Assembly (NCBI GenBank): GCA_944387495.1 | Contig: CALXFD010000003.1 | Span: forward strand, 3,534 to 67,533 | DNA length: 64,000 nucleotides | Direction of reading: 5' to 3' | Source of the DNA: an uncultured Clostridia bacterium | GTDB lineage: Bacteria; Bacillota; Clostridia; TANB77; CAG-508 | Shown here: positions 7,442 to 58,507 of the stretch, one piece after another | How the letters are laid out: every line of letters starts with the position of its first letter | How positions within the stretch are numbered: the stretch's first letter is position 1 | Position numbers and translations under genes: made by a program | The notes under the pieces: model-generated | The model's database searches: none | What the model was told of the DNA's origin: nothing | What the model saw: only the letters and a program-made list of their open reading frames with translations

Positions 7442-8563
7442 ATGATGGATTACAATGAGGATAACAATGTTTCAATGATGGATGGAACAGCAACAATAAA
7501 AGTTATAGGTGTAGGAGGAGCAGGAAATAACGCTGTAAATAGAATGATTGATGCTGGAATAAAAGGTGTTGACTTTATTGCTGTAAATACAGATAGACAA
7601 GCTCTACAAACATCAAAAGCAAATACAAAAATTCAAATAGGAGAAAAAATAACAAGAGGATTAGGAGCAGGTGCAAATCCAGATATAGGAGCACAATCAG
7701 CAGAAGAAAGCAAAGCAGAATTATCAGAAGTATTAAGAGGAGCAGATATGGTATTTGTTACAGCCGGAATGGGTGGAGGAACAGGTACAGGAGCTGCACC
7801 AGTTGTTGCACAATCTGCAAAAGAAATGGGAATATTAACAATAGGTGTTGTTACAAAACCATTCACATTTGAAGGTAAAAAAAGACTTTCACAAGCAGAA
7901 AGAGGAATAGAAAGTTTAAAAGGTAAAGTAGATACATTAGTAGTAATACCAAATGATAAATTACTACAAATTATAGATAGAAAAACATCAATAATAGAAG
8001 CATTTAAAATGGCAGATGATGTTTTAAGACAAGGTGTACAAGGAATATCAGACTTAATTGCAATTCCAGGACTTGTAAACTTAGACTTTGCAGATGTTAA
8101 AACAATAATGCTAAATCAAGGAATGGCACATATGGGTGTTGGTAGAGCAGCAGGAGAAAATAGAGCAGAAGATGCAGCAAAACAAGCTATTCAAAGTCCA
8201 TTACTAGAAACATCAATCGAAGGAGCAAGAGGAGTAATAATAAACATTACAGGTGGAGAAGATTTAGGATTACATGAAGTAAATACAGCAGCAGAATTAG
8301 TACAACGCAGTGTAGACCCAGAAGCAAATATCATATTTGGTACAGTAACAGATCCATCAATGGAAGATGAAATCCAAATTACAGTTATAGCAACAGGATT
8401 TGAAAAACCAGAATCAATATCAAGTATTGGTGTAGATAATATGGTATCAAAAACATGGGAAAAGAAAATAAGCTCAATTCCATCAAGCTCAGAAGTAAGC
8501 TCGTCACAAAATGATTTAGACATACCATCTTTTTTAAGAAAAAACAAAAATAAAAGCTTATAA
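7442..8563 (+). CDS. ftsZ: cell division protein FtsZ
   Basis: GGGTGTG tubulin signature, [36 protein letters not shown]. Confidence 0.95.
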
Positions 8564-8565
8564 AA

Positions 8566-8695
8566 GTTAAATTGGGGACGTTTCTTTTTGGACATTTTTG
8601 ACCATTTGGGGACGTTTCCTTTTGGACAAAAATGTCCAAAAGGAAACGTCCCCAAATGGTCAAAAATGTCCAAAAAGAAACGTCCCCAATTTAAC
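8566..8695. repeat. perfect 130-bp palindrome (63-bp arms, 4-nt AAAA centre) made of tandem TTGGGGACGTTTCYTTTTGGACA units in a head-to-head arrangement
   Basis: Reverse complement of 8566-8628 equals 8633-8695 exactly. It starts 3 nt after the ftsZ stop. Related units occur at 18406-18450 and 35874-35924. Confidence 0.85.
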
Positions 8696-8870
8696 CTGTC
8701 CCCAAAAACTGAGCAATTTTTACTATTTTTAATGAACAAAATGTTCTAAATTATCGATTATTTCTTAATTTCTACAATAAGAAAAGACAGTATTTTCAAA
8801 TGAAAGGTAGTACAATAATACATGTATTTAACAAAAGATATTAAAACAAAGTTAAATATCAGGTGATAAG

Positions 8871-56387: not shown

Positions 56388-56431
56388 GAGCTTTTATTTC
56401 CTATTTTGCATAGTATATTATATGACAAATA

Positions 56432-56470
56432 AACGAATAATATTAAAGATTATTCGTTTATATTTTACCT
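56432..56470 (+). terminator. hairpin terminator (aaataaacgaataat / attattcgtttatat + T-run)
   Basis: Read directly. Confidence 0.5.
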
Positions 56471-56542
56471 TATAGAAAAATTAATTAAATAAAAAATACT
56501 ATAAGAGTAAAAATGTAATATCTATGAAGGGAAGAGTTCAAT

Positions 56543-57511
56543 ATGGAAAATAAAAAAGGATTAGTAGGAAATACTCCTATGATTAAAATTGATTATACAT
56601 ATGAAGGAAAAAGTAGATATATGTATGCAAAAATGGAAATGTATAATCTTACAGGAAGTATAAAAGATAGAGTAGCATACCAAATAATAAAAAATGCAAA
56701 ACAAAAAGGAATACTAAAAGATAAAATGCCAATAATAGAAGCAACAAGCGGTAATACTGGAATCGCATTATCTGCTCTCGGAGCATATTATAAACATCCT
56801 ATATATATATTTATGCCAGATTGGGCAAGTCAAGAAAGAATAAAACTTATGAAACAATATGGTGCAAATATAATTCTTATTTCAAAAGAAGAGGGAGGAT
56901 TTATAAGATGTGTAGAAGAAGCAAAAAAACTTGCAAAAGAGAAAAATGGATTTCTATCAAATCAATTTGCAAATGAGGATAATATTGTTGCACATTATGA
57001 AACAACAGGAAAGGAAATAGTAGAACAGTTAACTGAAACACCAGGAGCTTTTATTTCAGGAGTTGGAACAGGTGGGACATTAATTGGGATTGCAAAAAGA
57101 TTAAAAGAAAATTATAAAGATGTAAAAATAATAGCATTAGAACCAGATAAAATGCCGATGATATCAAAAGGGGAGGTATATGGTCATCATAAAATAGAAG
57201 GAATCGGAGATGACTTCATACCAGATTTATTTAATAAAAAATTGGTTGATGATTTTGTTTTAGTAAATGATGATGATGCAATTAATATGTCTAGAAAATT
57301 GGCAAGAGAACTAGGTTTAGGTGTGGGAATTTCATCAGGAGCAAATTTTATAGGAAGTGCTATAAAGCAAAATGAAATAGAAAAGCCAATAGTAACAATA
57401 TTTGCAGATGATAATAAAAAATATTTGTCAACAGATTTGAGCAAAGAGATAGATGAAAATAAGGACTTTTTGTCAAATAAAATAGAGCTCTTAGATTTTA
57501 GTGTAGTTTAA
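56543..57511 (+). CDS. cysK: cysteine synthase / O-acetylserine sulfhydrylase family (PLP-dependent)
   Basis: PLP-lysine motif SIKDR, and SGNTG. The last 37 nt lie inside the 86-bp inverted-repeat arm. Confidence 0.8.
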   Translation: MENKKGLVGNTPMIKIDYTYEGKSRYMYAKMEMYNLTGSIKDRVAYQIIKNAKQKGILKDKMPIIEATSGNTGIALSALGAYYKHPIYIFMPDWASQERIKLMKQYGANIILISKEEGGFIRCVEEAKKLAKEKNGFLSNQFANEDNIVAHYETTGKEIVEQLTETPGAFISGVGTGGTLIGIAKRLKENYKDVKIIALEPDKMPMISKGEVYGHHKIEGIGDDFIPDLFNKKLVDDFVLVNDDDAINMSRKLARELGLGVGISSGANFIGSAIKQNEIEKPIVTIFADDNKKYLSTDLSKEIDENKDFLSNKIELLDFSVV

Positions 57512-57784
57512 TTTGCCTGGTGGTGGAGCTTATAGTAAAAAAAATTTATTTAATCTTAATGTGCGAAGCGGAATAATTTAGAAGCTCTTTGCGAAATAAC
57601 TGGAATAATGTTCGTGTGAAATTTATTTCTAATAAATTTCAGCACAGAAAAAGGTTCCAGTTTTTCGCATAGAGATTCTTAATTATGTAGCTGAGCCGTT
57701 AAGATTAAATAAATTTTTTTTACTATAAGCTCCACCACCAGGCAAATTAAACTACACTAAAATCTAAGAGCTCTATTTTATTTG
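57474..57784. repeat. foldback structure: perfect 86-bp inverted repeat arms (57474-57559 and 57699-57784) around a 139-bp partly palindromic core with a central 11-bp hairpin
   Basis: Arms are base-for-base reverse complements. The left arm contains the cysK stop and final 12 codons. The core halves are about 70 percent mirror-similar. Confidence 0.9.
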
Positions 57785-57815
57785 GCAAAAAAGAATTCAA
57801 TTTTTGAATTCTTTT
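57785..57815. terminator. bidirectional palindromic terminator (aagaattcaa ttt ttgaattctt) at the 3' end of sigK
   Basis: Perfect palindrome flanked by A and T runs. Confidence 0.55.
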
Positions 57816-58507
57816 GATAATTTATCAATAGCTTTTGTTTCAATCCTAGACACATAGCTACGAGAAATTCCGAGCATTTCTGCAATTTCATGCTGTGTTT
57901 TAGGTTTATGCCCACCTAGGCCAAATCGTAATTCTAAAATAGTCTTTTCACGAGTTTTTAAAATAGATTTCATTTTCTCATATAAAAATTTAATTTTCAT
58001 TTTGATATCAACTTCTTCTTCAATAGGTCTTTCATTATTTTCTAAAACTTCTTGTAATGTTACAACATTATCATCTTTATCTTTTCCTATTGGCTCATTT
58101 AAATATACTTCTGCACCAAGTTTTTTAGTAGACCTCAAATGCATTAATATTTCATTATCAATACATCTAGAAACATATGTAGAAAGTCGAGAACCTTTAT
58201 CAACATTAAAACTATTTATACCTTTTATAAGACCAATAGTTCCAATTGAAATTAAATCATCTTGATTAACATTTGAAGTACTATATTTTTTAGAAATATG
58301 GGCAACTAATCTTAAATTTCTTTCAATTAAAATATTTCTAGCTTCTTCATTACCATTTTTCATTTGTTCTAAATACATTTTTTCTTCTTCTTGTGTTAAA
58401 GGTTCAGGAAATAAATTACTACCTGAAATATATCCAACAACAAAAACAGCTGATTTCAGAAATTCTATAAATCCTAAAATACCTGACAAACAAAGTGCAG
58501 AAAACAT
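57797..58507 (-). CDS. sigK: RNA polymerase sporulation sigma factor sigma-K (pro-sigma-K), uninterrupted
   Basis: Pro-sequence MFSALCLSGILGFIEFLKSAVFVVGYISGSNLFPEPLT, then [22 protein letters not shown], and EIAEMLGISRSYVSRIETKA. ATG 58507 with GGAGG 6 nt upstream. Confidence 0.9.
   Translation of the reverse strand: MFSALCLSGILGFIEFLKSAVFVVGYISGSNLFPEPLTQEEEKMYLEQMKNGNEEARNILIERNLRLVAHISKKYSTSNVNQDDLISIGTIGLIKGINSFNVDKGSRLSTYVSRCIDNEILMHLRSTKKLGAEVYLNEPIGKDKDDNVVTLQEVLENNERPIEEEVDIKMKIKFLYEKMKSILKTREKTILELRFGLGGHKPKTQHEIAEMLGISRSYVSRIETKAIDKLSKEFKN

Follow-up and report, generated by a model that had tools for sequence, protein, structure and literature searches.

Background

Large inverted repeats that flip-flop and evolve in concert are well known from plastid genomes and from the palindromes of sex chromosomes. 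Among smaller repeats, REP and ERIC / BOX / Correia-type elements constitute multi-copy families with a consensus sequence, and typical invertons are bounded by repeats of 10-40 bp. Here we describe a 325-bp palindrome set between a converging cysK-like gene and the sporulation sigma factor gene sigK in 64,000 nucleotides of DNA from an uncultured Clostridia bacterium (GenBank assembly GCA_944387495.1, contig CALXFD010000003.1, positions 3,534 to 67,533; this whole stretch is called the window below). It is a clear example of known repeat-driven DNA dynamics, namely an inverted repeat with concerted evolution and spacer inversion, and we consider it probable that it represents a long-lived inverted duplication, at the position of the cysK terminator, whose arms recombine with each other and are thereby both homogenized and flipped. 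Homogenization of arms and inversion of the spacer by template switching between inverted repeats have been documented (Abraham & Hazkani-Covo 2021, PMC8604942), and invertons that partly overlap genes are an existing category (10.1101/2023.03.11.532203).

The locus resembles the plastid and sex-chromosome repeats in that its arms are closer to each other within a genome than they are between lineages and in that the single-copy spacer is found both ways round; with the shifting boundaries of plastid repeats it further shares a boundary inside a gene, the end of which is duplicated. It differs from them in size (0.3 kb rather than kb to Mb), in its setting between convergent genes of a bacterial chromosome, and in that the orientation is apparently fixed per strain instead of being equimolar. 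Like the REP/ERIC/BOX/Correia-type elements it is an imperfect palindrome of the 100-300 bp class in a transcribed intergenic region, but it exists as a single copy, is specific to this locus and derives from the neighboring gene's own 3' end. With quasipalindrome correction, or the Ripley model (PMC8604942), it shares identical arms, paired mutations, a reverse-complemented spacer and the dispensability of a dedicated enzyme. However, in the cases described there the arms measure about 5-16 bp and the spacers a few bases, as opposed to arms of 93 bp and a spacer of 139 bp here, lengths at which RecA-type homologous recombination is equally plausible. Unlike in those cases, the maintenance of the structure can here be followed across two lineages.

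Structure of the locus

The features of the locus, in window coordinates, are as follows.

56543-57511, plus strand: cysK-like gene, coding for a 322-aa protein of the pyridoxal phosphate-dependent cysteine synthase family (PF00291, E=1e-69)
57467-57559, unstranded: left arm, of which 57467-57511 is codons 309-322 of the cysK-like gene with the stop codon and 57512-57559 is non-coding
57560-57698, unstranded: spacer (core), a 139-bp imperfect palindrome seen in both orientations among strains
57560-57572 and 57686-57698, unstranded: orientation-marking "bubbles", the outer ~13 nt on each side of the spacer, which are non-complementary
57617-57627 / 57631-57641, unstranded: central hairpin, an 11-bp perfect stem (TGAAATTTATT / AATAAATTTCA) with a 3-nt loop
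57699-57791, unstranded: right arm, carrying at 57747-57791 the cysK tail as an orphan inverted copy; adjoins the likely sigK terminator
57790-57814, minus strand: small AT-rich hairpin (AAAGAATTCAA / TTGAATTCTTT) that overlaps the stop codon of sigK, with a T-run after it on the minus strand
57797-58507, minus strand: sigK, sporulation sigma factor K, 236 aa, convergent with the cysK-like gene

An inverted-repeat search delimited two arms of 93 nt each, which are 99% complementary, lie 139 nt apart and differ only at T57473 versus G57785 (92/93). The preliminary description of this DNA, made from the bare sequence, had reported arms matching at 86/86 positions (57474-57559 and 57699-57784); this is indeed the longest perfect stretch, and the full arms reach beyond it to the length given here. 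The window contains exactly two copies of a 23-mer taken from the arm, one on each strand, where 0 would be expected by chance, and the region folds at -214.9 kcal/mol, compared to -72 +/- 5 for shuffled versions (z = -26.6). The inverted repeat is real and far above chance expectation. The spacer is identical to its own reverse complement at 106 of its 139 positions (76%, where the earlier estimate had been about 70%), and the 11-bp hairpin already pointed out in that description sits at the center of symmetry, position 57629.

Of the 322 codons in the cysK-like gene, codon 309 is precisely where the left arm begins, and the arm holds FLSNKIELLDFSVV (14 codons) plus the stop codon; about 12 codons and the stop fall in the perfect stretch, as had been noted. 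The other end of the palindrome re-encodes this terminus on the opposite strand next to the 3' end of sigK, again as first described: the orphan tail at 57747-57791 reads FLPNKIELLDFSVV followed by a stop on the minus strand, and the sole mismatch between the arms turns the native Ser into Pro. The outer end of this arm lies 5 nt short of the sigK stop codon (57797-57799).

The two arms can be ranked as original and copy. All the 120 best homologues of the cysK-like product have a C-terminal extension of about 25 residues (..DNKKYLSTDLSKxIDxNxxFISNxIELxxYExx), and the terminal ..FISNxIELxxYExx is kept across these 120 proteins at ~70% identity. As the tail is conserved in this manner, the coding part of the left arm is native host sequence, and the right arm in consequence the copy. 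The same comparison bears on the idea that the palindrome is a remnant of a miniature inverted-repeat transposable element (MITE) or an insertion sequence, which landed at the end of cysK and supplied its C-terminus. The size of 325 bp and the long terminal inverted repeats are superficially similar to such elements, and an Rfam scan of 57000-58300 gave no match reaching a gathering cutoff, only plant microRNA (miRNA) precursor models with long hairpins (best score MIR2630, 69 versus a cutoff of 144); a miRNA-type identity was itself rejected, these matches being sub-threshold and reflecting a generic long-hairpin similarity. Yet the tail encoded by the outermost 45 nt of the left arm has a homologous counterpart at each position in the 120 CysK-like proteins, there is one copy only within the 64-kb window, and related loci are devoid of homologous sequence except for short AT-rich chance matches. 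A scan of JGI metagenomes with a 22-mer from the arm returned 0 matches, and one with the central palindrome (loop = N) returned 17, all of them unrelated chance matches in other contexts. On the strength of the single copy, the empty arm scan and the native coding sequence in the outer arm we rejected a mobile element; this reading appears effectively refuted and has hardly any credence left.

At the center of the spacer we also observed a segment (57619-57636, AAATTTATTTCTAATAAA) with an exact 15-18-nt match to the FISNK codons of the cysK tail in many relatives. The BLAST e-values of about 0.001-0.3 were judged not significant in DNA of 27% G+C, and the match may go back to an earlier duplication of the end of cysK or may have arisen by chance in AT-rich DNA.

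Recurrence in independent assemblies

Contigs carrying the locus (labeled L001 and onwards) were collected by exact-protein look-ups for CysK, SigK and close variants. More than 20 of them, from independent projects and assemblers (metaSPAdes NODE, MEGAHIT k87/k141 and scaffolds), display the same geometry, and the full structure recurs with unique flanks on both sides. This disposes of the suggestion in the preliminary description that the structure might be a foldback artefact. Long inverted repeats do often cause breaks or false joins in short-read assembly, and many contigs of the species stop inside the element, which is to be expected when a repeat exceeds the assembler k. However, an artefact, or a chimera, would be expected neither to recur across projects and assemblers nor to carry the strain-specific paired variants described below, and the inner 139 bp are not a perfect foldback. 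The probability that remains for it is practically nil.

Concerted evolution of the arms

Comparison of the strains revealed variants that are mirrored in the two arms. The substitution T57508A is accompanied by A57750T in L003, L011, L012, L104, L110 and L111; 1-nt deletions occur at both 57521 and 57737 in L011 and L012; and the runs A8/T8 are both shortened to A7/T7 in L104, L110 and L111. These patterns indicate that the arms evolve in concert, one arm being repeatedly copied onto the other.

A sister lineage, with 82% identity in CysK (P0004) and 95% in SigK (P0137), provides a second view of the process. In its sigK-side contigs L137-139 a 92-nt segment, located 70 nt past the sigK terminator and in the sigK sense, matches at 86/92 positions the cysK tail (LYSNKIELLNFSLV, followed by the stop) plus 47 nt downstream in L023, a contig from another sample. 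The outer boundary of this arm falls at the codon homologous to codon 309 of the window, and the three differences between the arm copies in their coding part are all synonymous. Both contig sets (L137-139 and L023) break off at one and the same base, which is what the inner end of an arm would produce, and none of the 8 sister-side contigs (L023, L133-139) extends past the inner arm boundary. Within a genome or lineage the arms are thus 99% (92/93, window) and at least 93% (86/92, sister, across two samples) identical, while between the two lineages the identity is 57% overall, with 64% in the coding part and 48% in the non-coding part. As the sister lineage has its own homogenized pair of arms, the inverted duplication is likely to predate the split of the lineages and to have been homogenized ever since. 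An inverted duplication had been one of the first proposals for this locus; as an origin it is supported by the native status of the cysK tail, but the homogenized arms are not those of a passive fossil.

Orientation of the spacer

The same contigs fall into two groups with respect to the spacer. Orientation A, that of the window, is seen in L001-7, L009, L010, L014, L015, L017, L019 and L020, and orientation B in L011, L012, L016, L021, L104, L110-112, L131 and L140. In L016 and L104 the spacer is the exact reverse complement of that in the window (139/139), and in L011/L012 it is so at 137/139 positions. At least one inversion of the spacer has occurred among these closely related strains. 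Orientation is constant for each flank haplotype (at least 10 assemblies of the window type are all A, at least 3 of the L104 type all B, and both of the L011 type B). For two MEGAHIT k87 contigs, L104 (B) and L010 (A), the longest perfect repeat measures 71 and 35 nt, respectively, both shorter than k; since polymorphisms in the arms shorten the perfect repeat below k, the orientation in these two is set by k-mers alone. Given this and the constancy per haplotype, the orientation is not an arbitrary choice of the assembler.

Two contigs are more complex. In L010 and L016, window-like and L104-like markers are combined in a mosaic across the arms and flanks (the equivalents of window 57385-57771), with mismatched arm pairs: positions 57508/57750 are T/T in L010 and A/A in L016, and A7 stands opposite T8 in both. 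Because these two are mosaics, a count of inversion events from flank distances is ambiguous. As a separate observation, L131 (1557-2772) has the element in orientation B, yet its sigK is only ~86% identical and frameshifted (188 + 53 aa), and a second cysK-like gene (78% identical) lies upstream of sigK, replacing a VCA0040-like gene; the contig is either a natural recombinant or chimeric.

The presence of both orientations raises the question of a programmed inverton, in which a site-specific recombinase encoded elsewhere would flip the 139-bp core as a phase switch, with effects on antisense transcription, on termination or on the stability of transcripts at the 3' ends of sigK and/or cysK, thereby diversifying sporulation or cysteine metabolism in the population. 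With invertons as surveyed by PhaseFinder / PhaVa (10.1101/2023.03.11.532203) the locus shares a repeat-bounded segment that is found both ways in gut metagenomes, and one repeat that overlaps the end of a gene, like the "partial intergenic invertons" of that study. The structure is moreover kept in two lineages, and the many contigs that break inside the element would also be expected from a mixed population. In other respects the two differ. A phmmer search with Hin and XerD found no recombinase among the window open reading frames of at least 100 aa, which for a 64-kb window is a weak test, as the enzyme could act in trans. No sigma-70-type promoter was found in the core: the region has 3 hits, against 2.7 expected, with those in the arms at chance level and two of the three mirrored in the arms. 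Both genes point inwards, leaving nothing downstream to be toggled, flipping creates no new junction sequence, and the CysK protein is the same in both states because its stop codon sits in the arm. With its high self-complementarity the spacer is nearly equivalent in its two states (its two strands fold at -55.7 versus -48.2 kcal/mol). None of the samples showed both orientations among the assembled contigs, the orientation being fixed per haplotype, and the low identity of the non-coding arm part between lineages speaks against a conserved recombinase site. Finally, the 93-bp arms are far longer than inverton repeats such as the 11-bp repeat of the intragenic thiC inverton (10.1101/2023.03.11.532203).

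Apart from its repeats and two orientations, the element shows none of the tested defining features of a functional inverton. Of the initial proposal of an invertible segment, the natural occurrence of the 139-bp core both ways round stands, and the programmed switch appears unsupported; we consider a dedicated inverton improbable. Slightly more doubtful still is the idea that the palindrome is under selection as an orientation-sensitive control element where the 3' ends of cysK and sigK meet, in which flipping of the asymmetric core, by a trans-acting recombinase or through regulated recombination, would change read-through, antisense transcription or RNase III processing across sigK. If true, it would provide heritable, reversible heterogeneity in the commitment to late sporulation, by way of a phase switch acting from the 3' side of a gene in a gut anaerobe.

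Distant relatives and transcription termination

A scan of GTDB genomes with a profile of the CysK subfamily yielded 80 loci (best identity 73%) from metagenome-assembled genomes of uncultured gut Clostridia; these include neither the present species nor its sister lineage. Seven species-level relatives keep the convergent cysK-sigK arrangement, with 88-90% identity in SigK, and have intergenic regions of 27-238 nt with ordinary terminator hairpins of 13-20 bp and without a long repeat. Across 686 kb of related loci there are four inverted repeats with arms of at least 35 nt, none of them longer than 46 nt.

In the window, by comparison, the cysK-like gene is followed only by the giant hairpin and then by the small hairpin at 57790-57814. 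The latter is likely to be the sigK terminator; it is followed by TTTT on the plus strand too, and the same hairpin is present after sigK in the sister lineage, although with 2 G-C pairs only it fails the rule of our terminator scan. The central hairpin of the spacer has no T-run after it in either orientation. Where the relatives place a normal cysK terminator, this species offers nothing but the giant hairpin with the small one behind it; the palindrome would therefore most likely act as the end of the cysK transcript or as a barrier between the convergent genes. As a site between convergent 3' ends, where relatives have their cysK terminator, and as a symmetric stem that is A-rich on one side and U-rich on the other on both strands, it resembles bidirectional intrinsic terminators. 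It differs from them in that its stem has about ten times the usual length, part of the U-rich tract falls within that stem and the structure does not satisfy the scan rule, and the role is a predicted one. A read-through insulator or an RNase III target, as put forward in the preliminary description, is plausible as well.

The comparison with relatives also bears on a neutral reading, by which the palindrome is a relic without any cellular role, persisting since conversion between the arms outruns mutation and a deletion would cost the cysK stop codon or the sigK terminator. In keeping with this, the non-coding arm sequence evolves freely, to the point of the 48% identity between lineages given above; the element is no better conserved between strains than its flanks (97.8% versus 94-98% for the flanking genes); it is absent in all the more distant relatives examined; and a second, unrelated perfect palindrome in the window (see below) suggests that this genome tolerates or generates palindromes. 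Against it, two lineages with only 82% identity in CysK agree in arm length (93 versus 92 nt) and in the outer boundary, there is no other terminator after cysK, whereas the relatives have one, and long inverted repeats are rare in the related loci. On balance we hold a purely neutral relic to be possible but rather unlikely.

Proposed origin and maintenance

The explanation that we favor is that of the recombining inverted duplication, a genuine feature of the chromosome that is inherited. Codons 309-322 of the cysK-like gene, the stop codon and 48 nt downstream would have been copied in inverted orientation beside the sigK terminator, giving rise to 93-bp arms around an older, degenerate 139-bp palindromic spacer. 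Homogenization and inversion would then stem from one process, intramolecular recombination, gene conversion or replication template switching between the arms: gene conversion or template switching would keep the arms identical, and a crossover or a double template switch would invert the spacer, making a dedicated invertase unnecessary. Orientation would accordingly be a slowly changing, strain-level polymorphism; it is predicted to be near neutral because both states give almost the same hairpin and no new junction. With less confidence, we suggest that the structure is tolerated, and perhaps retained, as a stand-in for the intrinsic terminator of cysK. In the cysK transcript a hairpin of more than 300 nt would form, flanked at its base by an A-tract and a U-rich tract in both directions, and this giant hairpin would terminate transcription, or stand in its way, between the two convergent genes.

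Several points weigh against parts of this account. The repeat of the sister lineage was pieced together from contigs of different samples, none of which spans the core, and its inverted rather than direct arrangement is deduced from synteny. The orientation calls come from assembled contigs instead of reads and are blind to mixing within a population, and only one inversion event is strictly required by the data. L010 and L016 are consistent with partial conversion tracts, with recombinants between strains or with chimeras of mixed-strain assembly. The mechanism lies beyond what sequence alone can tell, with RecA-type recombination, template switching and a trans-acting recombinase all possible. 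About 280 nt of non-coding DNA have been kept across two lineages of a compact genome, which may point to a further function. As for the terminator or insulator role, it is purely inferential: the terminator scan of 57300-57950 returned 0 terminator-like sites, and the U-rich tracts at the base of the giant stem are partly paired inside it.

Flanking genes and other palindromes

The gene name cysK used so far requires a qualification: its product belongs to the PALP / cysteine synthase family, but it scores 291 bits against the NCBIfam cysK equivalog TIGR01139, under the cutoff of 351, and lies below the NCBIfam cutoffs for both CysK and CysM. The gene is a member of a large subfamily of gut Clostridia marked by the conserved C-terminal extension of ~25 residues. 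The region upstream of it (56388-56542) is largely replaced between strains; in L011 and L016 this gap is 53.5% identical to that of the window and ~46 nt longer, with flanking genes 94-98% identical. The identification of sigK, on the other hand, is borne out by scores of 305.5 bits for TIGR02846 (cutoff 298.65) and 312 bits for NF004471, and a sigK of 236 aa was called in all related contigs.

The remaining stems of the window had been put at 8-18 bp in the preliminary description, which proved wrong: a second perfect palindrome lies at 8562-8699, with arms of 63 nt (8566-8628 / 8633-8695, 100% identity) and a 4-nt loop, between ftsZ and the spoIIGA-sigE-sigG operon. Each of its arms is made up of two units of ~31 nt (TTGGGGACGTTTCNTTTTGGACATTTTTGACCA) containing TGTCCAA motifs, which resemble Spo0A boxes. 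L143 is identical in this region, L141 differs by an additional unit and in what lies upstream, and other contigs break within the palindrome. Both long palindromes of the window adjoin genes for sporulation sigma factors.

A further palindrome was observed in a lineage with a 92%-identical SigK (P0140; contigs L133-L136), where the 0-60 nt after the sigK stop codon hold GGGGACGGGGG and then a perfect palindrome, CATTTTTGTCGAAAT-ACGC-ATTTCGACAAAAATG. All four contigs (4/4) end in or near it. Its arms contain TGTCGAA, which we take to be similar to the consensus Spo0A box, and its GGGGACG motif recalls the palindrome between ftsZ and spoIIGA.

Conclusions

The locus offers a compact natural case, obtained from metagenomes alone, of the evolutionary behavior of a long inverted repeat in a bacterial chromosome, in which one arm is bound to coding sequence and is followed by the other through conversion, while the spacer changes its orientation. 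Such elements break short-read assemblies, and tools based on inverted repeats plus orientation can mistake them for phase-variable "invertons"; the present case separates a strain-level inversion polymorphism from a demonstrated switch. If the giant hairpin proves to be a functional barrier between cysK and sigK, it would constitute an unusual form of terminator or insulator.

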